Notes: a model not told the origin generated them from the letters alone. A stretch of DNA of 64,000 bases from an uncultured Gammaproteobacteria bacterium (GCA_964613815.1 CAZTKG010000006.1:10973-74972); one strand, 5' to 3'. Shown: positions 5,306-63,315, counted from the stretch's first letter. Numbers and translations are program-made.

Positions 5306-5701
5306 ATGCTCTTTGGAGTGGGCTTGTCACTGCGGTTGCTGGTTGCTTTTGATAATTGGCCTTCGTTCAATGCTGATTTGGATGATGCTGAAACGATGCT
5401 CAATTTGGATGAGGCGGTTACGCGGATTCTGGTTGATATGGGTATTGGAGGGATTTCTGATGGGAGCCAGGTGCTTGTGAGCGCCGGGACTCGTCAAATT
5501 CGTTTGGATCGTCGGATTCTGGTTGTGCGGATTGAGGATCTTGCAGGGAAGCTTCAGATGCGGCTTGCGGAGTATATGGAGCTTCGTGATCGAGTCGGTG
5601 CTGCTGTTCGTGCTGATCTTCCTGGATGGACTTCGGAGATGGTTTTGACTTCTGTGGAGGTTGATGTGACGCGTGTTGGTCGTCTTTCTCGCGCTAGTTA
5701 G
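5306..5701 (+). CDS. hypothetical protein
   Basis: ORF with protein-like composition. The start was chosen at the internal ATG (MLFGVGLSL...), because the upstream part overlaps the probable promoter of the divergent membrane-protein gene. Confidence 0.35.
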   Translation: MLFGVGLSLRLLVAFDNWPSFNADLDDAETMLNLDEAVTRILVDMGIGGISDGSQVLVSAGTRQIRLDRRILVVRIEDLAGKLQMRLAEYMELRDRVGAAVRADLPGWTSEMVLTSVEVDVTRVGRLSRAS

Positions 5702-13700: not shown

Positions 13701-14750
13701 TTAGGAGATGATCAGGTCAGGCCAGTCATTCATTGGGGTCATGGACTCGACGAGATGCATGCCGGCGGATTCGAAGCGCTTGAGGGCGGCTTCGGACTCG
13801 GGGGTGAAGTCGGCCACGAAGCCTCCGGCGCCGTCCGGGATCGCGACCGAAGACATGCAGTCGGTGAGGATGTAGACCTTGCTGACGAGCGACGGGTCGC
13901 GGGCGGCGATGTCGTCGAGGAGGTCGTCGATGGAGGACTTGACGCAGTGGCTTGCGGCCTGGCCGGCGATGATGACGGCGTCGGAGTCCACGAGCTTCTT
14001 GAGGAAGCCGGCGTTCCTCTGGGCGAGGGGGGCGCCGTCGTGACGGGTGAGGACTTCGGGGCGGAAGACGCTGTAGTTCTCGGTGAGCGGATGGCCGCCC
14101 TTCACTTCGCACCACGACTGGGAGCCGCGGGTGAAGCTGTGGAACAGGCGCGCTTCGTGGATGTTGCCGGCGAGGGCGTGACCGGTGGATCCGAGGAGGC
14201 AGTGCGGGGGCCAGAGGTAGAGGGCATACTTGCCCTCGCGTTCGAGCTCCTTGGTGTAGTGGATGACCTGCTTGAGGAGCCAGGCGTAGTTGCCGCTACA
14301 AAGCCACCAGGCCATCGCAGGGTTCGGACGGACGGCACCGGACTTGATCTCGGTGGTGGTGATGACGCGGAAGGGGGTGAGGGGAGCGCCAGCGCTATCG
14401 ATCCAGAATGACGCGAAGAAGATCTGGTACGCGAAGTGCGTGTCCATGGTGGTGGTGATGTCGGTGATGGCGCCGAGGTTCCGGTAGATGAATTCGGCGG
14501 TGCGGCGGGAGTCGTCGATGGCGCCAGAACCGGAGCGGCCGCCGACGTAGAGCGTGCCTTCGGGGAAGCAGAAGTCGCGCTGGACGTCGATGAGGAGGAG
14601 GTGGATGCGGGTTCGGTCGCTGGCGGCGGGGGTGATGGAGTTCGACTTGCGGTAGTCCGTCGCTGCGGCCATCAGGGTCATCTGGTCGGGGTTGTAGTCG
14701 AAGCGGGCGGAGGTGGGGGTGTAGAAGCTGGGCAGGGGGAGGGTGGTCAT
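13701..14750 (-). CDS. pncA: PncA-type nicotinamidase / isochorismatase-family cysteine hydrolase, 349 aa with insertions
   Basis: LLLIDVQRDFCFPEGTLYVGG, WPPHCLLGSTGHAL and IIAGQAASHCVKSSIDD match the PncA blocks IVDVQNDFCEGGSLAVTGG, WPPHCVSGTPGADF and VVGIATDHCVRQTAEDA. Catalytic D, K-region and C are present. Confidence 0.75.
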   Translation of the reverse strand: MTTLPLPSFYTPTSARFDYNPDQMTLMAAATDYRKSNSITPAASDRTRIHLLLIDVQRDFCFPEGTLYVGGRSGSGAIDDSRRTAEFIYRNLGAITDITTTMDTHFAYQIFFASFWIDSAGAPLTPFRVITTTEIKSGAVRPNPAMAWWLCSGNYAWLLKQVIHYTKELEREGKYALYLWPPHCLLGSTGHALAGNIHEARLFHSFTRGSQSWCEVKGGHPLTENYSVFRPEVLTRHDGAPLAQRNAGFLKKLVDSDAVIIAGQAASHCVKSSIDDLLDDIAARDPSLVSKVYILTDCMSSVAIPDGAGGFVADFTPESEAALKRFESAGMHLVESMTPMNDWPDLIIS

Positions 14751-14887
14751 GGGGATCTCCTTTGAGCGGTAGAGCCCTTTTGGGCGATAGGGATCCTTGC
14801 GGATCGATGGGGGCGCTTTGCGCCGACAGGGTTCAGCGAAGCTGAACGATAGGGTTGTTGTTGAACGTGCGTAGATTTTTCCAAGCT

Positions 14888-16753
14888 CTACGCGAGCTTG
14901 AGGAGGGAGATGTCTTTGTGATTTACCACGTAGATGCCTCCTGGCGCGGGGAAGAGGGCGCTTTCGGTGGTGACGAATGGTGCCGTTTTTGGGAACTCTT
15001 TGGCTTTTGTGATGGAAGAGCTATTGATGTCCATGCGGACGATGCCGTCGTCGGTTGCTGCGAGCAGCATGGGGCCTATTGCGCATTTTCCTCGAATGGT
15101 GCCGAGCCAGGTTCCGTCCTTTGAATGTGTCTCGGCGGATGCGATGACGGATCCATTCTGTTTGATGACGGTGCATCTATTGAGAATTTTTCCGGCATGC
15201 TTGTAGGTGACGAACAGCCAGCAGTGGGTGTGCGAGAAGCTGCAGGTTATGTCGATGAGCTGACCAGGGATTTTGGGCAGGTTGATCGAGTCATTGAGGC
15301 TTCTTGCGCCTTTTGTGAACATGAACGCGACGTTCATGGTTCCGGCTCGGTAGAGGCCGAAACCGAAGGTTTCTCCGGTCCAGATGAGGGTTTGGCCTTC
15401 GAGAATGTCGCCGATGTAGACTTCGCCGAAGTCATCTGCTTTCCGGAGCTGATGTCCTCTGGTGAAGAATGTGTGTTCACCGTTTGCGTCGAAGATGGGG
15501 AGATTTCGGAAGGATCCGATTGCTTTGCGCTCTGGAGGTCTTCCTGATTTGAGAGAGACGAGTATGCCGTTTCGGCCGAGGATTGTTTTGTTGCCAGAGA
15601 TGCGGTAGCGCATTTTTGGCTCGAACGATCCTGTGGTTACGCGGCGGCCGTCTTCTCGTTTGAGGGCATTGTTTTCGTGGTAGATCCAGCGGAGTTTTCC
15701 GTTTTGGACTGTCGCGAATACGATGTGACCTGAAGTGCGGAAGAATCGGTTGTTTGTGACGTTTCCGATAACGGTGACGGTTTCTTTGACGGCTGTTGCT
15801 GGAGTTCCAGCGCATGCGGGGCAGGTGAGTCTGGCGTGAACGAGATCGCAATGCGTGCATGTTTTCCAGTCCAGGTTTTTGATGAGGTGCTCAGGGAATG
15901 ATCCTCGGGCATCTTTTTTGAAGACCTGGTAGAAGTGCTGAAGAAGGTCGTCGGGGATGGAGTGCAGCGGGAGGGCTGGCTTGGGGTAGCGGACTTCGTC
16001 GTCGAAGAGGGTGATGCGACGAAGGGGGCGCTCCGGATGTTTGACGCGTTTTTTCTTGTCCCTTGGCTTGTAGACACCTCCGAATGGGCCGACACAGAGG
16101 AGGCAATACATGAGCATGGTGGTGAATGCGTACCAGTCTGAGTTCTCATTGTGCGGCTTGTGCAGCGTGAGATGAGACTGGTTCGGATCTGCGAGAAGCG
16201 GGTCCATGTAGCGTTCGGTGTACATGCGCGCGAACCATTTGCCGTACTGAAAGCTGTCAGCGTCGATGATGTAGGCCTCGGCGTCACGTATGAGGACGTT
16301 GAGGTCGTTGAAGTCGCCGATGACGACTCCGCGGGCGTGGATGGCTCCGACGGTTTTGTGCAGGTCAAGGAATATTTTGACGATGCGTGCCGGGTCCACG
16401 GTGAGGCGGAATTGTTTTTCGCTGAAGGCTCTGAGCGGGTCTGCACCTGGAATCAGGCGCATGGTGTAGCCAGCTATTTGATTGCCGCGTTTGCTTGTGG
16501 CGAGATCGATTGGGGTGATGACTCTTGCGGGGAGACCTTTTGGAAAGGCAGGAAGCTTTGCCTGATGTTCTTTGATTCGAGCTTTGGCGTTTGCTTGCTC
16601 TCCGGGGTCTCCGTGGAAGTCGGCATGGCTTGCGGTTTTGAAGATCTTGGCCGCTTTGCCTGAGCCGATGTCGTAGACGTCCGCCTCGCTCCCTTTGCCG
16701 AGTGTTCGGCTGGGATCGATACGAATGCGCCGACCGTTGATGTAGGTGTGCAT
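14888..16753 (-). CDS. atypical protein-kinase-like protein with a Cys4 zinc ribbon and a C-terminal beta-rich domain
   Basis: The N-terminus carries a Gly-rich loop LGKGSEADVYDIG, a VAIK-like AAKIFK, a catalytic-loop-like HARGVVIGDFNDLNVLI and a DFG-like IIDADSF. These are followed by CTHCDLVHARLTCPAC and about 280 aa of beta-strand-rich sequence. Confidence 0.7.
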   Translation of the reverse strand: MHTYINGRRIRIDPSRTLGKGSEADVYDIGSGKAAKIFKTASHADFHGDPGEQANAKARIKEHQAKLPAFPKGLPARVITPIDLATSKRGNQIAGYTMRLIPGADPLRAFSEKQFRLTVDPARIVKIFLDLHKTVGAIHARGVVIGDFNDLNVLIRDAEAYIIDADSFQYGKWFARMYTERYMDPLLADPNQSHLTLHKPHNENSDWYAFTTMLMYCLLCVGPFGGVYKPRDKKKRVKHPERPLRRITLFDDEVRYPKPALPLHSIPDDLLQHFYQVFKKDARGSFPEHLIKNLDWKTCTHCDLVHARLTCPACAGTPATAVKETVTVIGNVTNNRFFRTSGHIVFATVQNGKLRWIYHENNALKREDGRRVTTGSFEPKMRYRISGNKTILGRNGILVSLKSGRPPERKAIGSFRNLPIFDANGEHTFFTRGHQLRKADDFGEVYIGDILEGQTLIWTGETFGFGLYRAGTMNVAFMFTKGARSLNDSINLPKIPGQLIDITCSFSHTHCWLFVTYKHAGKILNRCTVIKQNGSVIASAETHSKDGTWLGTIRGKCAIGPMLLAATDDGIVRMDINSSSITKAKEFPKTAPFVTTESALFPAPGGIYVVNHKDISLLKLA

Positions 16754-16762
16754 TGATTGATC

Positions 16763-17578
16763 CTATTTGGAAGCGGTTTTTCTTCCACAGATGATGGTGG
16801 TGTCGTCTTCGAGCAGCCCAGAAAAACGTGTAATACGTCTTCCAGGCCAGTCCACTTTTTGACCGTCACGGTTCATGATTCTGAGGCGTCTGTTGATCGC
16901 CTCTGGGTTTTTGTAGAACCGGTCATTTGTCCAGAACTGGTCGATTCCTCCTACGACTTCGTGTTTTCCTGGAAGGAGACAGTCAGCGCGTTTGATGATA
17001 TTTTCGGCGCCATCTGTTCCGATGAGGAAGTGCTTCACTTCGCTTGTTGGGCCCTGCCATGCGACCTGTAAGGTCATGGATTCAGGGGCCACGTCTTTGA
17101 GGCTGGTGGGGACGAGGTCGTATGCGATGTAGATTGGTGTATTGCCTTCTTGAGGGTTCAGAATGATTGTTTTGTCGTTGATCTGGATCATTCCGTCACC
17201 GCAGAAGAAAGCGGTTGTGGTGTCTTTTTGCACCATGATGCCGATAATGGTGAAGAGGAAGTGGTCGGCGATGATGCGGTTGGGGTTTGCGCCCATGTTT
17301 CGTGCGAGGGTGAGGATCTGCTGTTTGATCATGCCGCTGGCGGCGAGCAGTCCTGTGCTTGCAGGGAGGTGCGTACAGTTTGCAATTGCTTTTGCTGCGA
17401 TGTGCGCGCCGATTTTGGCGCCTACTTCGCTGTGAGGTGCGCTTCCACATCCGTCTGTGACGATGGCGATGAAGCCGTCTTTGATGGGGATGATGCGGAA
17501 GCCGTCCTGGTTGTTTTTTCCCGATTTTCGATGCGATCTGCCCGTAACGGTGCCGTTCGCAAGTTCGAAGGTGGTCAT
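16763..17578 (-). CDS. PP2C-family Ser/Thr protein phosphatase
   Basis: FIAIVTDGCGS, FFCGDGM and FLIGTDG are the metal-binding Asp motifs of PPM phosphatases. It is the first gene of the operon, and its stop lies 10 nt from the kinase start. Confidence 0.8.
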   Translation of the reverse strand: MTTFELANGTVTGRSHRKSGKNNQDGFRIIPIKDGFIAIVTDGCGSAPHSEVGAKIGAHIAAKAIANCTHLPASTGLLAASGMIKQQILTLARNMGANPNRIIADHFLFTIIGIMVQKDTTTAFFCGDGMIQINDKTIILNPQEGNTPIYIAYDLVPTSLKDVAPESMTLQVAWQGPTSEVKHFLIGTDGAENIIKRADCLLPGKHEVVGGIDQFWTNDRFYKNPEAINRRLRIMNRDGQKVDWPGRRITRFSGLLEDDTTIICGRKTASK

Positions 17579-17803
17579 TGGGTTTCCGGGGTTGAGTTGT
17601 GAAAGGGCTGCTGCGTTTATACGCAGATTGCGGGAGGGAAGTGGCTATCTTCCAACCCAGAATCTGGGTATAATTGTTTTATTGACACTAAGTACTTGGA
17701 AAAATTTTTATGGAGGGTTTGTGGCCTTTGGCCGTTTGTATCGCTTTGCGATGTTTGTGGCCCTTTGGGCCGTTTGTTGGAATTTGTTGTTGTTGATATT
17801 ACA

Positions 17804-17866
17804 CTAACTAACACATAAAAAAATAGTTGTCAACCCCGTAAAAATCAGCGAGCTGATTCACGTGGC
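17804..17866 (-). promoter_or_regulatory. promoter of the PP2C-kinase-pncA-vWA operon (TTGACA-16-TTAGTT) with a conserved upstream module GCCACGTG-N-AATCAGCgaGCTGATT-TTTAC-GGGG
   Basis: Reverse complement reads gCCACGTGaatcagctcgctgattTTTACggggTTGACAactatttttttatgtgTTAGTT. The same architecture recurs at 18668-18731 and 24112-24171. Confidence 0.5.
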
Positions 17867-17876
17867 ATGGTCTCTT

Positions 17877-17956
17877 TCCCATCTCGACCTTGTGGAGAGA
17901 TCTGATAGCGACCAGGGCATGAGATCTCTCCACAGGGTCGAGATGGGAAGAGGGGG
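17877..17956. repeat. complete copy of a dispersed inverted-repeat element: 26-bp arms CCCATCTCGACCTTGTGGAGAGATCT / AGATCTCTCCACAGGGTCGAGATGGG around an 18-nt centre, followed by AAGAGGGGGG
   Basis: Seen directly. It is homologous to the copies at 38970, 42524, 48921 and 63089. Confidence 0.7.
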
Positions 17957-17959
17957 GTG

Positions 17960-18643
17960 TTAGATATGCATAATGTCTATTTCTTTGAATGATCGGGACT
18001 TGAAGCTGTAGAGGGCGGCGGGACGGTTGGCTTGACCTGTTTGTTTGCGGCCGGTGGGTTTGATGAGGTCTAGGGAGAGGAGTTTTCGGCGGAAGTTTCG
18101 TTTGTCTAGTTTTTTGCCGAGGATTGTTTCGTAGGTTGCTTGGAGGTCTGTGAGGGTGAATTCTTTTGGAAGAAGGGACCAGACGATGTTGGTGTAGCCG
18201 AGTTTTGCCTTTAATCGCTTATGCGCGAGTTTGATGACAGTTTTGTGGTCGTAGGCGAGGGGAGGGAGTTTTTTGATGGAGACCCAGCGGACGTCTTTGT
18301 ACTTTTCTGAAGTTTTGAGGGGGTAGCGGCCACTTGGGAGAAGGGCGAAGTAGGTGATGGAGATGACGCGGCCCAGGGGGTCTCGTTTGATGTCGTCGAA
18401 GGTTTGGAGTTGTTCTAAGTATGCTGATTTGACGCCTGTCTGTGCATTTAGGATGCGAATTGTGGCGTCTTTTGATGTTTCGGCTTGTTTGATGAGGCCT
18501 CCTGGAACGGCCCATTTGTCTGTGAATGGGGCGCGTTTCATTTGGATGAGGAGGACTTTGAGGTCATTGTTTTGGACGGTAAAAATGACTGCATCGGCAG
18601 CGATTTTGATGTTTTGTCCGTTCCAATGTTTCGGGGTAGCCAT
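17960..18643 (-). CDS. NrtR-like regulator: NUDIX hydrolase domain fused to a C-terminal winged-helix domain
   Basis: Nudix box GGLIKQAETSKDATIRILNAQTG (GX5EX7REUXEEXGU-like), with about 90 aa of C-terminal basic/helical sequence. The start was taken at the ATG (MATPKHWNG) because the track's GTG start lies inside the -10 box. Its own promoter (TTGACA-17-TACTTT) lies at 18668-18697. Confidence 0.65.
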   Translation of the reverse strand: MATPKHWNGQNIKIAADAVIFTVQNNDLKVLLIQMKRAPFTDKWAVPGGLIKQAETSKDATIRILNAQTGVKSAYLEQLQTFDDIKRDPLGRVISITYFALLPSGRYPLKTSEKYKDVRWVSIKKLPPLAYDHKTVIKLAHKRLKAKLGYTNIVWSLLPKEFTLTDLQATYETILGKKLDKRNFRRKLLSLDLIKPTGRKQTGQANRPAALYSFKSRSFKEIDIMHI

Positions 18644-18667
18644 AGGGTGTTTGTGTCGTATGTACAC

Positions 18668-18731
18668 AAAGTATCATGGGTTTTGGGTGTTGTCAACCTC
18701 TGTAAAGATCAGTAGGGCTAATCCGCGTGGC
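18668..18731 (-). promoter_or_regulatory. promoter of the NrtR-like gene, carrying the same upstream module (GCCACGCG...TTTAC..GGTTGACAA)
   Basis: Reverse complement reads GCCACGCGgattagccctactgatcTTTACagagGTTGACAacacccaaaacccatgaTACTTT. Confidence 0.5.
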
Positions 18732-18799
18732 ACGGGAGGGGCTGGTGTTGACAAAGTGTTGGTTTTGTGGTAGTTTTTTGTCGTTCTTTGGAGGTAGAG

Positions 18800-19219
18800 A
18801 TGTCTGGTGATTCTCTTGTGTGCAAGATTGTGATTTCTGGTTCTCGAAAGGGGTTGCAGTATTTCATGTGCCGTGGACATCGTGAGGGAAGTACGACAAC
18901 GCTTGTTACTACGTTTGATTTGACGTTGGCGACGATTGACGTGCTTCTGGATGAGCTTCGTGAAGAGGTGAATGGTCTTTATTGTGATGTAGAGTTCCTA
19001 GAGACTGAGTCGGTGGAGATGTTCCGACGCGAGGCCGCTGCTGATGCGACGAGGAAGGCTGAGGGGGTTGCTCAAGAAGTTGCCAATATTGCACCGGCTG
19101 TATTTCGTCGGATTATGGCTTCTGCTGATTCTTCAACGGCCGTGCGTCTGACCGTCGATGTGACCGTGATGGGCCGTTCGGCGACTCAAACGGTGCAGCT
19201 TTCGGCGCAGAGTATTTAG
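18800..19219 (+). CDS. hypothetical protein
   Basis: ORF with SD ggagg 6 nt before the internal ATG (MSGDSLVCK). It is followed by a strong terminator. Confidence 0.4.
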   Translation: MSGDSLVCKIVISGSRKGLQYFMCRGHREGSTTTLVTTFDLTLATIDVLLDELREEVNGLYCDVEFLETESVEMFRREAAADATRKAEGVAQEVANIAPAVFRRIMASADSSTAVRLTVDVTVMGRSATQTVQLSAQSI

Positions 19220-19235
19220 TCTCTTCTGATAGCAC

Positions 19236-19258
19236 GCGGTTTCGCGTGTTTTTTTCTT
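19236..19258 (+). terminator. rho-independent terminator: cacgcg-gttt-cgcgtg + T7
   Basis: Sequence cacgcggtttcgcgtgttttttt. Confidence 0.6.
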
Positions 19259-19515
19259 TGATACAAAAGTGGTCCGTACGGACCACTTTTGATACAAGGA
19301 GGATGGGGGGGTGTTGTTTGTTTTAGGTAATGAAATATGTGTTTTTTGATTTTTGTATTTGGTTTCTCTCTGTATTTAATATGCTCCGTACGGATTGTTT
19401 TTGTATCAAGGAGGTTGATGGGCGAGTGATGAGGGAGGATTTTTTTGGGATGTGTGATTAGTTGACATTGTGGGATTTTTTTGTTATGTTTTTTTCGTTC
19501 TTTTGAGGAGGGACT

Positions 19516-19995
19516 GTGTACGTTTTTCTTTGTCTTTTGTTTTTGGCTTGTGGATTTGACGGTGGTGATACTGCCTCTGCTGATACGGCGGCGGTGACGG
19601 TCACGATGACGACAGGGAGTGGGTCGACAGGTTCAGTGACGACTTCTTCGACATCTGCTACGACTACTACGCTTGTGACCTCTACGACGTCTGGGACTTC
19701 ATCGACAGGTGGTGTTCCTGAGCGTTATGGTTCTGAGGCGGAGGAGATTCCGCCGGGGACGATGGAATGTTTGTGGGAGTATGTGAAGGCGCAGACGGAG
19801 TACTACTGCGCGGATACGCCGGGGATGTGGGCGTGTCAGGGGTATGCGGATCGTGACGGCGATGGGTATGGGGATGCGAACGACGGGGGGAGTCGGGAGG
19901 ATTACTCGTACATCTGTCCTGGGGAGGAGCTTCGTGAGGGGTACACGCTTGGTCCGGATACGGATCGGGATGACTGGGACGCTTTGGTGCATTGA
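19516..19995 (+). CDS. putative lipoprotein with a Thr/Ser-rich linker and a Cys-containing acidic C-terminal domain
   Basis: MYVFLCLLFLACGFDGG has a signal peptide with lipobox L-A-C. A promoter (TTGACA-17-TATGTT) lies at 19451-19485. Confidence 0.55.
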   Translation: MYVFLCLLFLACGFDGGDTASADTAAVTVTMTTGSGSTGSVTTSSTSATTTTLVTSTTSGTSSTGGVPERYGSEAEEIPPGTMECLWEYVKAQTEYYCADTPGMWACQGYADRDGDGYGDANDGGSREDYSYICPGEELREGYTLGPDTDRDDWDALVH

Positions 19996-20016
19996 TCAGT
20001 GAGATCGTGCGCTTTT

Positions 20017-20427
20017 TTATTTGTTTAGAAATGTTTCAAAAGCTGGATGGAGGTTTGGGATGAGGGATTCGTTTTGATAATTGAGGGGATCGATCCATTT
20101 GAAGGCTGAGTGGTCTTCGGAGAGAGTGACGTTTTGGGTGTTTGATTGGCAGTGGAAGAAGGTTCCGACGATTTGCCACTGTTCACCTCTTACTGTTGGG
20201 CGCCATTCGTTCATGAAGAAGGGGGTTCCGATGGTGACTGTGAGGCTTGTTTCTTCCATGATTTCTCGTTTTAAAGCGTCTAGGAAGTGTTCGCCTGGGT
20301 TTAGGCGGCCTCCTGGGACGTCGAATTGACCTCGGTTTGATGCGTCTTTGTAGGATTGTGATTCTGCGAGGACGAGGATTTTTCCGTTGTGTTCGATAAA
20401 GGCTTTTGTGGCTACGAAGAGGCGCAT
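20017..20427 (-). CDS. NUDIX hydrolase
   Basis: Nudix box GGRLNPGEHFLDALKREIMEETSL. Confidence 0.75.
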   Translation of the reverse strand: MRLFVATKAFIEHNGKILVLAESQSYKDASNRGQFDVPGGRLNPGEHFLDALKREIMEETSLTVTIGTPFFMNEWRPTVRGEQWQIVGTFFHCQSNTQNVTLSEDHSAFKWIDPLNYQNESLIPNLHPAFETFLNK

Positions 20428-20491
20428 AGGGGGATTTTTTGATTGTTGATGTCATTATCTTGACATGATTTACTTTATTGTGTAAGTTTTC

Positions 20492-20890
20492 TTGTTCTTT
20501 TCTGGAGGCGTGATGGGGACGATGATTCGTCTTGGGCGCGCGTCTCAGATTGTGACGTGCGTTGAGTTGACTGGATACTCTTCGGTGACCGTGGGGCTTT
20601 TGATGCGTTCGCGGGTTTCGATCAATGCTGGTTGGGCGTACGACTTTCATTTTTTCTTTCTTCTGAATGGTGAGCGGATTCCGCTTCAGGTGCGAGCTTC
20701 TTGTGACCGGCGTGACCGGCGGAGTTTGCAAGTTGGGTTTCAGCCTATTTGGGAGCAGGTGACGGATCTTGAGCAGGCGGCGCGTGATGGTGTGCTTGAG
20801 CTTCTCATCGTTCATCATTTTCGTGGGGCTTTTCATACTCACCGTGTGTGGGTTGAGGCTCCTGGGGAAGGAGTTCTCTCGGCGTGCTGA
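20492..20890 (+). CDS. hypothetical protein (weak PilZ-like RxxxR / D-x-S-x-x-G resemblance)
   Basis: 132-aa ORF. Only a weak motif resemblance was found. Confidence 0.3.
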   Translation: MFFSGGVMGTMIRLGRASQIVTCVELTGYSSVTVGLLMRSRVSINAGWAYDFHFFFLLNGERIPLQVRASCDRRDRRSLQVGFQPIWEQVTDLEQAARDGVLELLIVHHFRGAFHTHRVWVEAPGEGVLSAC

Positions 20891-20913
20891 TGTGCGTCGG
20901 GTTTTTTGATAGA

Positions 20914-22293
20914 ATGGAGGATATGGGGTTTTTTGATTTTTTGAAGCGTCGGCCGGAGCAGAAAGAAGTAAAGGAGCGAGAGCGGCTTCAGTTTACGAGT
21001 TCTGAGGTCACGGAGGCGAGTTTGGCGCATCCGGATCGGAATGAGGATGCTTCTTTTGTGTCTGCGGAGGATGGATTTATGGTTGTTAGTGATGGAGCCG
21101 GTGGGCATGCTGGAGGGGATGAGGTTAGTCGGCGTATTGTTCAGTCTTTTGCGGAGACGCTTGAGCATGTGCGTGGAGTGGAGCTTGGGGAGGATTCTTT
21201 AGAAAAGGCGAGTGAGCTTTTGGAGATGCAGGTTTTGAAGGCTGCGCAGGATGCGTATACGTTTTCGATGGAGGTGGCGCAGACGCTTGATGATCCTAGG
21301 AAGCGGCCGATGGCGACGGTGATGGCTGGGCGGGTGATTCGGACGGAGCAGGGGATTCGTGCGATTATCAAAAGCGTTGGGGATGGACTTGCGTATGTGC
21401 GGCGAGCGAATGGGGAGGTGGAGCAGGTGCCGATTGTCGAGGATAGTTATGTGGCAATGTATTTTGAGAAGAAGGTGCGGAAGGGGGAGCTTTCTGAGGA
21501 GGATGTGTATCGGATTATGAATTGTTCTAGTCCTTTGGATTTTGATTTTGAGCCGGATTTGGTGAAGGGGGCGCTATTGAAAAAAGAAGCGCAGTTTTAT
21601 TTTAAGAAACGGAATGTTGTCACTGCTTCGCTTGGGAGTGATTTGCCTGATTCGCTGGATGTTCATTCGGCGATTGTGGCGCTGGATACGGGGGATGAGC
21701 TTTTCTTTATGAGTGATGGGGTGGAGAATTTGACGGATGATGAGCGGAAGATGCTTTTGAGTGGTGGGCCGCATTTGCAGTCTCGGGCGGAGGCTTTGAT
21801 GAGTAGTTCTGTTGCGCGGAGTCAGAGTCGGTCGAGGCGGTCGAAGAAGGATGATGTGACGGTGACGGGGCTTGAGGTGCGGGATGTGGTGCATGAGGAG
21901 ATGGAGAAGGCAGCTGCGGTGAATGCGAAGATTGAGCGGTTGCGTGATAGGCAGGAGGTGTTTGCTGGACGTGTGCGGGAGCTTGGAAAGCTTGTGAGAC
22001 GGAAGGGGGCTCGGCCTTTGGAGCGGATGGATTTGTATCAGACGCAGATGCAGCTTGCGGATGTGCAGTATGCGATTGGGAAGGCGCAGTTGGAGCTTTA
22101 TGATGAGGGGACGGATGATAAGCGGGATCAGTTTGAGATTCAGCGGCATAAGGAGACGATGCGGCTTGCGAAAGCGAATCGGACTCGGGCGGAGAATGCG
22201 CTCGGTCGGCTTCAGGGTGCTAGAGATGATGTTGACCGGGTGAAGGCTGATAAGGCTCGGGCGGCTGCGCGGAATGCGAGTAAGGGGGCTTGA
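20914..22293 (+). CDS. PP2C/SpoIIE-family phosphatase with a long C-terminal coiled coil
   Basis: HPDRNEDASFV, MVVSDGAGGHAGG, VGDGLAYV and FFMSDGV are PPM motifs. The C-terminal 130 aa is heptad-rich (ERLRDRQEVFAGRVRELGKLV...). The start is uncertain (M11/M14 of the track ORF). Confidence 0.7.
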   Translation: MEDMGFFDFLKRRPEQKEVKERERLQFTSSEVTEASLAHPDRNEDASFVSAEDGFMVVSDGAGGHAGGDEVSRRIVQSFAETLEHVRGVELGEDSLEKASELLEMQVLKAAQDAYTFSMEVAQTLDDPRKRPMATVMAGRVIRTEQGIRAIIKSVGDGLAYVRRANGEVEQVPIVEDSYVAMYFEKKVRKGELSEEDVYRIMNCSSPLDFDFEPDLVKGALLKKEAQFYFKKRNVVTASLGSDLPDSLDVHSAIVALDTGDELFFMSDGVENLTDDERKMLLSGGPHLQSRAEALMSSSVARSQSRSRRSKKDDVTVTGLEVRDVVHEEMEKAAAVNAKIERLRDRQEVFAGRVRELGKLVRRKGARPLERMDLYQTQMQLADVQYAIGKAQLELYDEGTDDKRDQFEIQRHKETMRLAKANRTRAENALGRLQGARDDVDRVKADKARAAARNASKGA

Positions 22294-22323
22294 TAGATTT
22301 TTTGTAGCTGATAGGATTTTGGC

Positions 22324-23313
22324 ATGCGAATACTTGGAATTGAGTCTAGTTGTGATGAGTCGGCGATTGCTTTGCTTGATGGCAAGGGTGATGATTTGAC
22401 CGTGGTTTCATCGGTTGTTTTGTCGCAGGTTGATATTCATAAGGAATTTGGGGGGATTGTGCCGGAGGTTGCGGCGCGGGAGCATGTGCGGGGGTTGTTG
22501 CCACTTTTTGATGGGGTTGTGGAGCGTGATGGTTCTGATATTGATGCGATTGCTGTGACGCGGGGGCCGGGGCTTAGTACCTCGCTTCAGGTTGGGCTGG
22601 AGACGGCTAAGTCGCTATCATACGTTTGGAATAAGCCTTTGGTTGGGGTAAATCATTTGAAGGGGCATGTGTATTCTGCTTGGCTTGGGGAAGGGGTGCC
22701 GGAGTTTCCTGCGCTTTGTCTTTTGGTGAGTGGGGGGCATACGGAGCTTGTGGTGATGCGAGGACATGGGGATTTTGAGAAAATTGGGTCGACGATTGAT
22801 GATGCGGCTGGGGAGGCGTTTGATAAGGTGGGGAGTATGCTTGGGCTTGAGTATCCTGGGGGGCCGAAGGTTTCGACGTTGGCTGTAGAGGGGGATGAGA
22901 AGGCGTTTGATTTTCCTCGGCCGATGATTGATCGGGATAATTATGATTTTAGTTTTTCTGGGTTGAAGACGTCTGTTTTGTATAAGCTTCGGAAGATGGA
23001 TGATGTGGATGCGGTGCGTGCGGATGTTGCGGCGAGTTTTGAGGAGGCGGTTGTGGATGTGCTTTGTAAGAAGACGTTTCGGGCGATTGAGGAGTTTGGG
23101 GTGAAGAATTTGATTGTGGCTGGTGGGGTGGCGGCGAATCGGAAGTTGCGTGCGCGATTGGTTGATGGGGCGGGGGTTGATGTTTATTTGTCTGAGATGC
23201 AGTATGCGACGGATAATGCGGCGATGATTGCTGCTGCGGGGTATTTTGATTATCTGTCAGGCGTACGTGATGATGCGTTTGATTTAATTATTGATACTAA
23301 TTTGAATTTTTAG
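22324..23313 (+). CDS. tsaD: tRNA N6-adenosine threonylcarbamoyltransferase
   Basis: MRILGIESSCDESAIALL..., with HxxGH metal site HLKGHVYSAW and the Kae1/TsaD fold. Confidence 0.9.
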   Translation: MRILGIESSCDESAIALLDGKGDDLTVVSSVVLSQVDIHKEFGGIVPEVAAREHVRGLLPLFDGVVERDGSDIDAIAVTRGPGLSTSLQVGLETAKSLSYVWNKPLVGVNHLKGHVYSAWLGEGVPEFPALCLLVSGGHTELVVMRGHGDFEKIGSTIDDAAGEAFDKVGSMLGLEYPGGPKVSTLAVEGDEKAFDFPRPMIDRDNYDFSFSGLKTSVLYKLRKMDDVDAVRADVAASFEEAVVDVLCKKTFRAIEEFGVKNLIVAGGVAANRKLRARLVDGAGVDVYLSEMQYATDNAAMIAAAGYFDYLSGVRDDAFDLIIDTNLNF

Positions 23314-23315
23314 GT

Positions 23316-23762
23316 ATGGAGGTCAAGAAAACATCTAGTTTAGAAGAAACTTGGAGCGTTGCTGAAGATTTTTTGAAGCTGTTGAAGGCTGGAGAGGTTG
23401 TTGGGCTTGTGGGGGATTTGGGAGCTGGGAAGACGGCGTTTGTGCAGGGAATTGTGAAGGCGATGGGAGCTGATGTGCAGGCGAAGAGTCCGACGTTTAC
23501 GTTTGTGCGTGAGTATTCGGTGGATTTTGAGGGGATTAAGAAGGTTGTGCATGCGGATTTTTATCGGCTTGAGGATGCGAAGGGTGTGGAGGCGCTTGCG
23601 ATGCATGATTTGATGGGGGATGATGTGGTGATGTTTGTGGAGTGGGTGAATAAGGTTGAGGAGCATGGGGTGAAGCCGGATTGGATTGTGGAGATTTCGG
23701 GGAGAGATGAAGGAGAACGGGAGATTGGGATTAGGAGGGTTGAAATCGTTGAAAGCGTTTAA
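23316..23762 (+). CDS. tsaE: tRNA threonylcarbamoyladenosine biosynthesis ATPase TsaE
   Basis: P-loop LVGDLGAGKTAFVQG, about 150 aa, lying immediately after tsaD. Confidence 0.8.
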   Translation: MEVKKTSSLEETWSVAEDFLKLLKAGEVVGLVGDLGAGKTAFVQGIVKAMGADVQAKSPTFTFVREYSVDFEGIKKVVHADFYRLEDAKGVEALAMHDLMGDDVVMFVEWVNKVEEHGVKPDWIVEISGRDEGEREIGIRRVEIVESV

Positions 23763-23847
23763 AACGTTGATGACAAAAAAGACCCTGGTGGGTCTTTTTT
23801 GGCTTTCGATGATAATGACAGGGTCATTGGCATTGAGAGGCCCCGGG

Positions 23848-24078
23848 TTAGCGGGGGAGGGAGTTGGTGACGATCACTTCGTGGCGCTGGCTGAAGGCCA
23901 GGTTTGCGATGTGACCGAGGAGGGCTCCGGACGCGAGGGCGAGCCAGGAGATTGCCTTGAGGTTTGCGTTGTCGATCTGGATGTCGGCGAGGTTGATGAT
24001 GCCCTGCACGGATCCCAGGAGGACGATACCGAAGGTGAAAGAAAGGATGATCGTACGGGTCAGGTCGTTGGGCTGCAT
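23848..24078 (-). CDS. small membrane protein (hypothetical)
   Basis: 76 aa with two hydrophobic segments. It has its own promoter carrying the conserved upstream module (24112-24171). Confidence 0.4.
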   Translation of the reverse strand: MQPNDLTRTIILSFTFGIVLLGSVQGIINLADIQIDNANLKAISWLALASGALLGHIANLAFSQRHEVIVTNSLPR

Positions 24079-24111
24079 TTACTGCTCCAGCTTCAGGTTG
24101 TCAGCGGTTGA

Positions 24112-24171
24112 ATAGTAGCATATTTTTTGGGTTTTGTCAACCGCGTAAAGACAATAAATTGTCCACGTGGC
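24112..24171 (-). promoter_or_regulatory. promoter (TTGACA-17-TACTAT) with the conserved upstream module GCCACGTG-GACAATttATTGTC-TTTAC-GCGG
   Basis: Reverse complement reads GCCACGTGgacaatttattgtcTTTACgcggTTGACAaaacccaaaaaatatgcTACTAT. Confidence 0.5.
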
Positions 24172-32647: not shown

Positions 32648-33199
32648 ATGAAGATTACTCGACCGTCACAGCGTAAGCATCGAGGATTGTTTTTTGGCGC
32701 GCTTGCTGTTGGGGTGGTTGTGTTGTTTGGGATTTGGGGGTTTCAGATTTTGGTCATGGTGGAAGGTAATGCGGAGCGTATGGCTGGGCGTGAGAAGTTG
32801 AGTGAAACGATTGAAGCTGGGCAGGATTATGCGGAGGAGCTTCGGGAGTTGACGCCTCAGCTCGATGGAGATGTGCAGAATTTTGTTTCTGGGATTTCGA
32901 ATTTGTTTTTTGCGGCTGAGGTGAGTGAGGCTGAGGCGGAAGCTGTTGCTGGAGGGGTTGTGGAGGCGCTTTTGGCTGATTTGGACGAGGAGGACGTAAA
33001 GAGCGATGACGCTCCACGTCCCGAGGGGGAAGTTGAAGGCGTTGATTCCGGAGATGAGGAGGGGGGAGATGGGAGTATTGATGGCGGAGGTGATGATCGG
33101 AGTTTGATTTATGCTGAGACTGATGTGGCTGAAGGGGATTTCTCCAGCAAGGTCGAGATGACAGAAGGAGGGGGTGAAGGTGAGGATGTTCGTTTTTAA
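32648..33199 (+). CDS. membrane-anchored acidic hypothetical protein
   Basis: N-terminal TM helix followed by an extremely acidic and Gly-rich sequence. Confidence 0.45.
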   Translation: MKITRPSQRKHRGLFFGALAVGVVVLFGIWGFQILVMVEGNAERMAGREKLSETIEAGQDYAEELRELTPQLDGDVQNFVSGISNLFFAAEVSEAEAEAVAGGVVEALLADLDEEDVKSDDAPRPEGEVEGVDSGDEEGGDGSIDGGGDDRSLIYAETDVAEGDFSSKVEMTEGGGEGEDVRF

Positions 33200-38457: not shown

Positions 38458-39036
38458 ATGTCGAATCGTCATTTAGCCCGAACCATGGCTATGCAGTGTC
38501 TTTTTGAATGGGATTTTCGTCGTGGTGATAAAGAGCGGGTGCCGGAGATTGTGCAGTTTGTGAAGGAGGAGTTTGCTCCTCAGTTTGATGATGGGGATTA
38601 TGTGGCTCATCAGGTCGCGGAAACGATTGGGCGGATTAATGAAATTGATGAGATTTTGGAACATTTTGCGCCGGATTGGAATATTCCTGAGATGACGATT
38701 GTTGATCGGAATATTTTGCGGCTTGGGGCGTATGAGTTGAAATTTGATGAGAAGATTCCTAGTAAGGTGGCGATTAATGAGGCGATTGAATTGGGGAAGA
38801 CATTTGGAGGAAGTGCTAGTGGGAAGTTTATTAATGGTGTGCTTGGAGCGGTTTATAAAGATATGGTTGCCAAGGGTGAGTTGAAGAAGGTTGATTTGGA
38901 GAAGCGAGAAGAAAAAGAGAAGAAGGAAGAAGTGGCTGATGCCGGGGAAGGGAAGGAAGGTGAAGAGATCTCTCCACAAGGTCGAGATGGGAAGGGGGAT
39001 GAGAAAGAGGAGAAGAAAGAATCTAGTGACGAATAA
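38458..39036 (+). CDS. nusB: transcription antitermination factor NusB with an acidic/Lys C-terminal extension that contains a repeat-element half copy
   Basis: [21 protein letters not shown]...[14 protein letters not shown] is the NusB core. The tail ...[12 protein letters not shown]... is encoded by the AGATCTCTCCACAAGGTCGAGATGGG repeat. Confidence 0.8.
38970..39002. repeat. half copy of the inverted-repeat element (AGATCTCTCCACAAGGTCGAGATGGGAAGGGGG) inside the nusB 3' coding region
   Basis: Identical to the reverse complement of the left arm at 17877-17902. Confidence 0.7.
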
Positions 39037-48919: not shown

Positions 48920-49276
48920 CTAGATCTCTCCGCCTTGGTCGAGATGGGAGGAGGCGGTGGAAGTTGGTTCTGGTTCAGATGGTGATGTTGCGGCTAAGCT
49001 GCTTTTTACTTCGTCTTTTAGTTTTTTTCCAGCTTTGAATTTTGGCACTTTTACCGCTGGGATGTCGATGATTTGAGATGGGTTTCTTGGGTTCACGCCT
49101 TTTCTTGCGTGGCGTACGCGGGAGGAGAACGTGCCGAATCCGCTGATGGTTACTTCTTCATCGTTTTGGAGGGCTTTGATGATTTCTGCTTGGAAGGCGA
49201 TGAGGAAATCTTCTGCCTCTTTTTTGGAGAGGTTGAGATTGTCTGCAATTTTTTCTGCCAGTCTTGCTTTGTTCAT
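48920..49276 (-). CDS. hup: DNA-binding protein HU with a Ser/Pro/Thr C-terminal tail
   Basis: MNKARLAEKIADNLNLSKKEAEDFL...GFGTF...R.ARKGVNPRNP is the HU/IHF fold signature. Confidence 0.8.
   Translation of the reverse strand: MNKARLAEKIADNLNLSKKEAEDFLIAFQAEIIKALQNDEEVTISGFGTFSSRVRHARKGVNPRNPSQIIDIPAVKVPKFKAGKKLKDEVKSSLAATSPSEPEPTSTASSHLDQGGEI
48921..48950. repeat. half copy of the inverted-repeat element (AGATCTCTCCGCCTTGGTCGAGATGGGAGGAGG) overlapping the hup stop codon
   Basis: The last 9 codons and the stop of hup (SHLDQGGEI*) are encoded by the element. Confidence 0.65.
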
Positions 49277-57241: not shown

Positions 57242-57340
57242 GAGGTTTCCTCTTGGGTGAAAAGAACGTTTTTAGGATAGGTCGGTTGGCGTGGTTTTGT
57301 CAATAAGAAAAGAACAACCCTGATGGGTTGTTTGGTTTGG

Positions 57341-58012: not shown

Positions 58013-58115
58013 TGGTGCTCGCGGTGAAAAGAACGCGTGGAGTGTATGGGGAGATGGGGGGTTTGTCAAGGTTAGGGAGATAAAAAAGAACAGCCGGGTT
58101 GGGCTGTGTGTTGGG

Positions 58116-59911: not shown

Positions 59912-59924
59912 GGGGTGAAAACGG

Positions 59925-60074
59925 GCCGAAGTTGCACTCTGGGTATGGTGCGACGTCGGGTCGGGACACCTTTAGCGTCCATACCGTTAATTTTGGCTAC
60001 AGGATGGATGGGTGAGGAGCGGCGGTGTCATATCCTCCGCCTCCTTACGCACCATACCCAGAGTGCAACTTCGG
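59925..60074. repeat. 30-bp perfect inverted repeat (gggccgaagttgcactctgggtatggtgcg / cgcaccatacccagagtgcaacttcggccc) enclosing a 90-nt GC-rich loop, 25 nt upstream of leuS
   Basis: Seen directly. Both arms are exact reverse complements. Confidence 0.75.
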
Positions 60075-60098
60075 CCCGTTTTGATTATTTATATTTGT

Positions 60099-63095: not shown

Positions 63096-63176
63096 CCCAT
63101 CTCGACTGAGCGAAGTGAATGGAGAGATCTGATAGTGGCAGAGCTGCAAGATTTCTCCGCGATGGTCGAGATGGGA
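63089..63176. repeat. complete long-form copy of the inverted-repeat element directly after the leuS stop
   Basis: Arms cccatctcgactgagcgaagtgaatggagagatct / agatttctccgcgatggtcgagatggg with centre gatagtggcagagctgca, then agatgttgggggg. Confidence 0.7.
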
Positions 63177-63315
63177 GATGTTGGGGGGATTTTGTGAAGT
63201 AATGTGGATGGATCAGTTGACTTAGGTTCGCCATCGGGAGAGAATAGAGACATAGAAGCCCTTGGTTGAATGTATTTTCAACTGGGGGTTTTCGAATTAG
63301 TGATATACTTTTTTT

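Follow-up and report, generated by a model that had tools for sequence, protein, structure and literature searches.

The hairpins of attC sites and of IS200 and REP sequences have a conserved base and a variable top. In prokaryotes, putative mobile promoters and promoter reuse have been described from similar promoter sequence located before non-homologous genes and across genomes (PMC3575422). The regulator NrtR has as its signature a palindrome of 21 bp built around GT-N7-AC (PMC2330246; Rodionov et al., 2008), and NrtR is released from DNA in vitro by ADP-ribose (PMC2330246). Here we analysed a 64,000-nucleotide stretch of DNA recorded under an uncultured bacterium (GCA_964613815.1, CAZTKG010000006.1:10973-74972; hereafter the window, with positions counted from its first letter), in which three minus-strand promoters carry a common upstream module made of two conserved CACGTG-like boxes with an inverted repeat between them, the proximal box abutting the −35 hexamer.

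In behaviour this module recalls the mobile promoters (PMC3575422): it precedes unrelated genes within one genome and across phyla and is absent from orthologous sites of sister species. Its similarity, however, is limited to ~25 nt covering the two boxes and the −35, it has a variable self-complementary core, nothing is shared downstream of the −35, and no mechanism of transfer was seen. With attC sites, REP/BIME sequences associated with RAYT, and IS200/IS605 ends it has in common a conserved base, a variable stem, conserved asymmetry (a TT bulge and a G.T pair) and tandem copies; neither the R''/R' boxes of attC nor the GTAG motif of REP is matched by it, it is low-copy and coupled to a −35, and no cognate enzyme gene was seen among the open reading frames (ORFs) scanned. 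The module also resembles UP elements and class I/II factor sites in having a proximal and a distal part, in abutting the −35 and in lying before tRNA and infA promoters, but it differs from them by its covarying inverted repeat and by a spacing between parts that varies by ~10 bp. Moreover, at 47-50% G+C it is not A/T-rich as an UP element would be, the TTT of the proximal box alone being A/T-tract-like. A central CACGTG/CCACGTGG is found in parS as well; the module lacks the TGTT/AACA arms, and no match to parS (TGTTNCACGTGAAACA) within 3 mismatches was found anywhere in the window.

Anatomy, covariation and recurrence of the module

The three promoters with the common module are located at 17866-17805 (A), 18731-18668 (B) and 24171-24112 (C) on the minus strand, almost to the base where an earlier note on this DNA had placed them (Table 1). 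From 5' to 3', each module consists of GCCACGYG, an inverted repeat of 14-17 nt, TTTAC, a gap of 2-3 nt (given before as 3-4 nt) and GGTTGACAA. At all three sites the core comprises TTGACA, a 17-nt spacer and an extended −10 of the form TGnTAnnnW; judged by these near-consensus −35 and extended −10 elements, sites A, B and C are real promoters. All of them are intergenic and each faces a gene, module B lying between two divergent promoters, that of nrtR (−) and that of a SIMPL-like gene (+). In its general form the element reads (Y)TG-CCACG(T/C)G, variable inverted repeat, YTTTAC(G/A)N(1-2)GG, TTGACA, measures ~35-45 bp and is placed at about −36 to −75. The core described earlier as palindromic is a complete CCACGTGG only at site C, the corresponding sequence being CCACGTGA at A and CCACGCGG at B. 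The inner palindromes do differ among the sites, as had been proposed, but they are not fully locus-specific: those of A and B are mutually related (ATYAG-N4-5-CTGAT), with a T.G wobble at B.

Table 1. Coordinates of the module promoters, NrtR boxes and neighbouring genes in the window
Feature	Position	Strand	Sequence or parts	Remarks
Module A distal box	17859..17866	-	GCCACGTG	
Module A inverted repeat	17843..17858	-	AATCAGC-TC-GCTGATT = AATCAGCTCGCTGATT	closing pair A-T abuts both boxes
Module A proximal box	17834..17842	-	TTTACGGGG (TTTAC 17842-17838, then GG)	abuts −35
Site A GGTTGACAA	17835-17827	-	GGTTGACAA	
Promoter A	17805..17833	-	TTGACA 17833-17828, 17-nt spacer, TGt-TAGTTA	−10 at 17810-17805
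Module B distal box	18724..18731	-	GCCACGCG	
Module B inverted repeat	18707..18723	-	GATTAG-CCCTA-CTGATC = GATTAGCCCTACTGATC	one T.G wobble
Module B proximal box	18697..18706	-	TTTACAGAGG (TTTAC 18706-18702, then AGA)	
Site B GGTTGACAA	18698-18690	-	GGTTGACAA	
Promoter B (nrtR)	18668..18696	-	TTGACA 18696-18691, 17-nt spacer, TGa-TACTTT 18673-18668	
Module C distal box	24164..24171	-	GCCACGTG	full CCACGTGG palindrome
Module C inverted repeat	24150..24163	-	GACAAT-TT-ATTGTC = GACAATTTATTGTC	
Module C proximal box	24141..24149	-	TTTACGCGG (TTTAC 24149-24145, then GC)	
Site C GGTTGACAA	24142-24134	-	GGTTGACAA	
Promoter C	24112..24140	-	TTGACA, 17-nt spacer, TGc-TACTAT	−10 at 24117-24112; no NrtR box
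Partial module	32994..33019	-	gACGTGG-AGCG-TCAT-CGCT-CTTTACGTCC	antisense inside plus-strand ORF 32648-33199; covariance model 22.4 bits, E ~8e-4
NrtR box B	18650..18670	-	TTTGTGT-acatacg-ACACAAA	perfect palindrome; overlaps −10 of nrtR promoter; ends 6 nt before ATG
NrtR box A1	17787..17807	-	TTAGTGT-aatatca-ACAACAA = TTAGTGTaatatcaACAACAA	over −10/start of promoter A
NrtR box A2	17671..17691	-	TTAGTGTcaataaaACAATTA	in leader of PP2C operon
nrtR	17960..18643	-		227 aa; NUDIX and NrtR_WHD winged helix
Operon behind promoter A	13701..17578	-		leader ~220 nt
PP2C phosphatase	16763-17578	-		
621-aa protein	14888-16753	-		weak kinase match (E=0.002, sub-threshold)
349-aa protein	13701-14750	-		no detectable vWA/TerY domain
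76-aa ORF behind promoter C	23848..24078	-	GGAG 7 nt before ATG	two hydrophobic segments; bidirectional terminator near 23775-23800
Divergent promoter and SIMPL/DUF541-like gene	18748..19219	+	TTGACA 18748-18753, TAGTTT 18771-18776	ATG 18800 to 19219

The module is specific, and not generic to the promoters of the window. The full composite was found in the 64 kb at A, B and C only (0 expected), and TTTAC-N(2-5)-GTTGACA gave 3 matches against 0.00 expected from 100 shuffles. GCCACGYG by itself had 7 matches against 2.8 expected, the remaining 4 being isolated inside genes and without a promoter. The earlier note had allowed for the motif being a feature of every promoter; in a simple scan of both strands, ~19 of the ~22 promoter-like matches (TTGACA-type hexamer, 16-18 nt, TAnnnT) came without the module. 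A covariance model run over the whole window returned A, B, C and one partial copy lacking a promoter. The copy count for the source organism rests on the 64-kb window, as neither the genome nor the metagenome scan described next returned its genome.

Genome and metagenome collections were scanned with patterns that fixed the boxes and the −35 only, palindromy not being asked for. The 15 distinct pattern matches were thus not chosen for being palindromic; 5 of them nevertheless contain a Watson-Crick stem, 4 bp or longer, that is anchored on both boxes (binomial P ~3e-9; 0 of 20000 shuffles), and three further matches have a stem with one mismatch or wobble. When 13 sequences were aligned, 7 of the 8 inner pairs changed on both sides, and 94.5% of the cells were paired vs 33-70% in slid controls. 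The first inner pair alternates between G-C and A-T, even between the orthologous tRNA-Val promoters L009 and L022. The inner segment measures 12-20 nt in the stem-bearing copies and the stem starts exactly at the boxes. The inverted repeat is a covarying stem-loop, with pairing kept through two-sided changes in sequences unselected for pairing. The boxes themselves can pair (CCACGTG with ACGNGG), with a constant G.T and a bulge of two T. Since the spacing of the boxes varies by ~10 bp, one rigid protein or dimer spanning both of them on B-form DNA is ruled out.

The scan of species-representative genomes gave five hits, two of them with the same anatomy in one low-GC metagenome-assembled genome (MAG). 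One of these reads CCACGTG-GAGGC-TT-GCCTC-TTTACGTGG-TTGACA and is followed or preceded by a tandem copy; the other reads CCACGTG-GGCAG-TTTA-CTGCC-TTTACGTGG-TTGACA. A third hit, CCACGTG-G-ACGACGC-AAA-GCGTCGA-C-TTTACGGGG-TTGACA, precedes a gene for tRNA-Val in a MAG whose title reads Myxococcales. The metagenome scan returned 12 matches, in 7 of which an inverted repeat is anchored on both boxes with a sequence that differs each time (stems AGGCC/GGCCT, GCG/CGC, CGACGC/GCGTCG, AGCAATGC/GCATTGCT and GAGGC/GCCTC). Instances were found in L010 (two in tandem), L011, L024 (three in tandem), L018 (infA), L019 and L023 (uvrA, on a Patescibacteria contig), as well as before tRNA-Val in L009/L017 and L022, the L009 record being titled Myxococcales; other downstream genes encode small membrane proteins. 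These instances have spacers of 16-17 nt and −10 hexamers. Inner types are shared across loci, L011 having that of the first copy of L024 and L010 that of its third copy. The boxes are identical across lineages of 39-63% G+C and in a second phylum. At L022 a second module-like copy (5359-5395, −; CCCCGTG-GCGAC-GCA-GTCGC-TTTACGGGG) stands back to back with the tRNA-Val module, and where its distal box has changed from A to C, its proximal box has a matching G.

The covariance model found no module before uvrA in L036-L038, three relatives that share 84-86% UvrB identity with L023, and none at the nrtR loci L012, L014, L027, L030 and L033, in ~95 kb from other Uhrbacteria. Because it is absent from these orthologous nrtR and uvrA promoters of relatives, we infer that the element is gained and lost quickly in Patescibacteria. 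The uvrA promoters of L036 (8960-9040) and L037 (8930-8965) lack the boxes; a G+C-rich hairpin of another sequence (CCGCAG..CTGCGG and CCGCG..CGCGG, respectively) lies 4 nt ahead of their −35, and in L036 a second TTGACC is preceded at 5 nt by ACGTGG. A scan of viral contigs that required the −35 gave 0 matches. Without this requirement there were 46, of which 44 are chance-like and two (L068 and L070) are ambiguous and may lie inside ORFs.

NrtR boxes outside the module

The earlier note had named the NrtR-like protein as a candidate regulator of the module. The label itself was correct, the protein having a NUDIX and an NrtR_WHD domain, and the proteins related to it at 55-66% identity carry the labels Candidatus Uhrbacteria or Patescibacteria. 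A search of the window for TWWGTGT-N7-ACACWWA (21 bp, up to 2 mismatches) gave exactly 3 matches vs 0.44 expected, a number that 0 of 100 shuffles reached. All of them lie outside the module, whose boxes and inner repeats have no GT-N7-AC, and the same search gave no NrtR box at promoter C. The placement of box B is consistent with autoregulation of nrtR.

The three boxes match the published NrtR signature, and their sites are orthologous to boxes that relatives carry next to nadD, pncB, nadE and ADP-ribosylglycohydrolase genes. In L014, L030 and L033, TTTGTGT-N7-ACACAAn is located ~20 nt before the nrtR start codon, and the promoter of the gene that comes after nrtR contains TTAGTGT-N7-ACACTAA, 40-100 nt beyond the nrtR stop codon. 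The downstream box is also present in L012 and L027; the upstream site of L012 has a spacing of 6 or 8 nt, and the upstream copy of L027 has a degenerate right half. In contrast, GT-N7-AC symmetry is lacking in the module, which stands before the −35 and does not occur at these other nrtR loci. NrtR is very unlikely to be the factor of the module, because its own boxes are conserved in five loci without the module and promoter C has a module without a box; on this evidence we regard the module as independent of NrtR.

Promoters A and B are probably targets of NrtR through these separate operators, and their repression would be relieved by ADP-ribose. The genes behind promoter A had been described as a TerY-P-like operon. 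The PP2C phosphatase is clear, but the kinase match of the second protein is sub-threshold and the third gene lacks a vWA/TerY domain. The gene order nrtR, PP2C, a weakly kinase-like gene of 620-640 aa and a gene of 350-370 aa is kept in the Uhrbacterium locus L027 (10980-15921), where it continues with pncA, nadD/NAD-kinase and ADP-ribosylglycohydrolase genes. In other Uhrbacteria nrtR is located beside nadD, pncA, pncB, nadE, ADP-ribosylglycohydrolase and prs, whereas here NrtR appears tied to the PP2C/kinase-like operon instead of NAD genes. The two NrtR boxes on this operon of conserved order suggest NrtR control of a phosphorylation module. An NrtR operator is hereby defined for Uhrbacteria, and it points to NAD/ADP-ribose sensing linked to protein phosphorylation.

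A candidate reading of the module and its alternatives

The reading we favour, with a probability of roughly 0.4, is that the module would act at the DNA level as a recognition site for a candidate factor, its two boxes being brought side by side by folding of the spacer, and that it would behave as a portable promoter cassette. The three sites are strong sigma-70-type promoters, to each of which one self-contained upstream element is joined at the −35. The two CACGTG-like boxes, 10-20 bp apart at variable spacing, would adopt a single fixed geometry only if the spacer formed a hairpin or cruciform. Recognition by a protein is proposed because the boxes are strongly conserved, and a widely distributed DNA-binding factor would be the candidate that recognises the module as DNA. 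With the proximal box in direct contact with the −35, binding of the factor would affect RNA polymerase at a core promoter that is already strong, with repression or insulation more likely than activation. A role as RNA is unlikely for B and L010, because a divergent gene lies directly upstream. The element would spread and be lost as a cassette placed upstream of promoters.

The element appears to be an undescribed variant of promoter-associated cis-elements. It is unlikely, in our estimate, that it amounts to an undescribed class of promoter element, in which a stem-loop or cruciform whose base is conserved (CCACGTG / TTTACGNGG, with the fixed TT bulge and G.T) and whose top is free to vary would be read as folded DNA just upstream of the −35, by a conserved protein or by RNA polymerase, and would move between genes and phyla (Patescibacteria, Myxococcota) as a portable control cassette.

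Several observations weigh against the favoured reading. No candidate gene for the factor was found in a Pfam search of most ORFs of the window besides NrtR, toxin-antitoxin proteins and HU, and the sample is small, at ~10 independent instances. The collection scans demanded TTGAC beside the proximal box, so the search itself accounts for part of the tight coupling to the −35; L068 and L070 are stem-bearing copies not beside a −35, as is the promoter-less relic at 33019. Ordinary terminators, too, place hairpins ~8 nt before a −35, with no boxes beside them. In the pairing of box with box, the A-N position is mismatched in 5 of 13 copies, and the predicted stability of the hairpins is modest, with z-scores for A, B and C of −1.9, +0.1 and −1.8 as RNA and −2.3, +0.7 and −0.7 as DNA, B being barely stable. 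Finally, L020 and L021 combine the two boxes and a good promoter with essentially no stem; given these two loci, the stem may be dispensable.

An alternative is that the module consists of two linear protein sites, with a dimer on the distal CCACGTGG, a separate site at the proximal TTTACGTGG and no folding, the palindrome being incidental (a leftover terminator of the upstream gene, for example, or a product of palindrome-templated mutation). The boxes are by far the most conserved part, the tandem arrays look like multiple operator sites, the hairpin energies are weak, and L020 and L021 dispense with the stem. We nevertheless consider linear sites an unlikely explanation: the stem is always anchored on both boxes and covaries, L009 vs L022 included, A and C already have separate upstream terminators or hairpins, and at B and L010 no gene on the same strand lies upstream that could need a terminator. 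Also doubtful, and with lower odds, is a small repeat that moves or recombines, either REP/MITE-like or serving as the folded target or end for an HUH enzyme or a structure-specific recombinase, with an incidental −35 and no regulatory role of its own. Its patchy presence across phyla, its absence from orthologous sites in sister species, the tandem copies, the recurrence of inner types at different loci, the promoter-less copies and the layout of attC and IS200/REP hairpins would all fit such a repeat. Against a REP/MITE or attC-like site stand the low copy number (3-4 per 64 kb), motifs that differ from the attC R boxes and the REP GTAG motif, and a Pfam scan of most window ORFs that returned no transposase, integrase or Y1/HUH gene; moreover, the fixed GG|TTGAC junction and the near-consensus −10 indicate selection as promoters.

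A transcribed RNA element is less likely again: here the hairpin and a short U-tract would form the 3' end of the upstream transcript, as a terminator, insulator or processing site that blocks read-through. YTTT(T) comes after the stem, the conserved G.T of the box-box pairing works on the sense strand only, and ordinary terminators occur here at the same distance from the next −35, for example at 57303; in addition, module A follows nrtR, and the 31-bp hairpin that precedes the module has no T-run. The divergent upstream genes of B and L010, however, leave no sense transcript to be expected, and the T-tract, of 3-5 nt only, is drawn into longer pairing. An intrinsic terminator, defined by a G+C-rich stem with 5 or more T in the following 8 nt behind a same-strand gene, was rejected because a terminator scan passed over the module hairpins, the T-run is short, B and L010 lack such a gene, and A and C have other hairpins or terminators before them. 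Nor does a terminator call for boxes that are kept from one phylum to another. No relevant match came from Rfam, either over the whole window at the gathering threshold or over 17500-18900 at E<=10.

Very improbable, in our view, is the scheme of the earlier note, in which CCACGTG is a common activator site, the inner palindromes are gene-specific operators and NrtR is the regulator of a small regulon. Shared boxes and different palindromes at three promoters do agree with it, as does the relatedness of the A and B palindromes (ATYAG..CTGAT) at two promoters that are both NrtR targets via separate boxes. The NrtR operator lies elsewhere, though, and is conserved in the five module-less loci, and promoter C has no NrtR box. 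The proposal of individual operators fared no better, as the inner palindrome differs in most instances elsewhere, varies in length and is self-complementary, which points to pairing, and as several distinct palindromes of differing length would need many cognate regulators in very small genomes. All module promoters have near-consensus cores, untypical of activator dependence, and nothing indicates that they depend on an activator.

Other known systems were also discarded. For SOS/LexA the genes behind the module are too diverse, with tRNA, infA, nrtR and membrane-protein genes beside uvrA and uvrC, and for sigma-54 (TGGCAC, on the opposite strand) there is no −12 GC element at the right distance. 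The consensuses of MetJ, BirA, TyrR, the LacI family, Zur, MraZ, DnaA and the marbox do not fit the module, and a literature search for CCACGTGG returned plant G-box papers only.

Patescibacteria (the candidate phyla radiation, CPR) have tiny genomes with few recognisable regulators, and almost nothing is known on their transcription control. If the favoured reading is true, the module would be a testable cis-element for uncultured organisms, common to Myxococcales-like genomes and placed before tRNA-Val, infA, uvrA and nrtR, and it may exemplify structure-dependent promoter recognition.

Gene neighbourhood and other features of the window

The NrtR protein is 100% identical to one encoded on several marine metagenome contigs, the longest of 579 kb. 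Six contigs that share the locus are 99.96-100% identical, so they offer no population variation in the modules. The label of pilB as the gene next to promoter C was upheld by a T2SSE domain. In public gene calls on identical contigs, a plus-strand ORF of 113 aa (23770-24111) is annotated antisense to the 76-aa ORF. We favour the minus-strand ORF because of its promoter, ribosome-binding site and bidirectional terminator; gene callers may be misled here by strand bias. Strand asymmetry is extreme over 1-64000, with a GC skew of +0.17 to +0.54 and an AT skew of about −0.01 to −0.39 in every 2-kb bin. As the skew is independent of gene strand, plus- and minus-strand genes must differ strongly in codons.

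The leader of the PP2C operon (17720-17790, −) contains three mini-hairpins with AAA loops, GGCCCaaaGGGCC, ATCGCaaaGCGAT and GGCCaaaGGCC, with ACAAAC between them. Between the nrtR stop and module A, at 17876-17949, a repeat of ~30 nt, TTCCCATCTCGACCTTGTGGAGAGATCT, forms a 31-bp inverted pair; it is also present singly at 38966-38993, 48922-48968 and 63149-63195. In the HU ORF this repeat would encode the C-terminal SSHLDQGGEI, and similar SHLDxxGEI peptides would be encoded at the other sites, so it could be a shared C-terminal tag or a DNA/RNA element of 3' ends.

Several promoters on both strands have GTTCTTT(T) directly after the −10 (18777-18795, 19491-19510, 20489-20507, ~57265-57274 and ~58031-58040). 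The plus-strand examples run into a GGAGG ribosome-binding site (consensus approximately CGTTCTTTTGGAGG), and the motif constitutes a conserved, very short leader that is independent of the strand composition bias. Finally, a perfect 35-nt inverted repeat (59918-59952 / 60048-60082), with its arms 95 nt apart, adjoins the start of a 1027-aa ORF at 60012.

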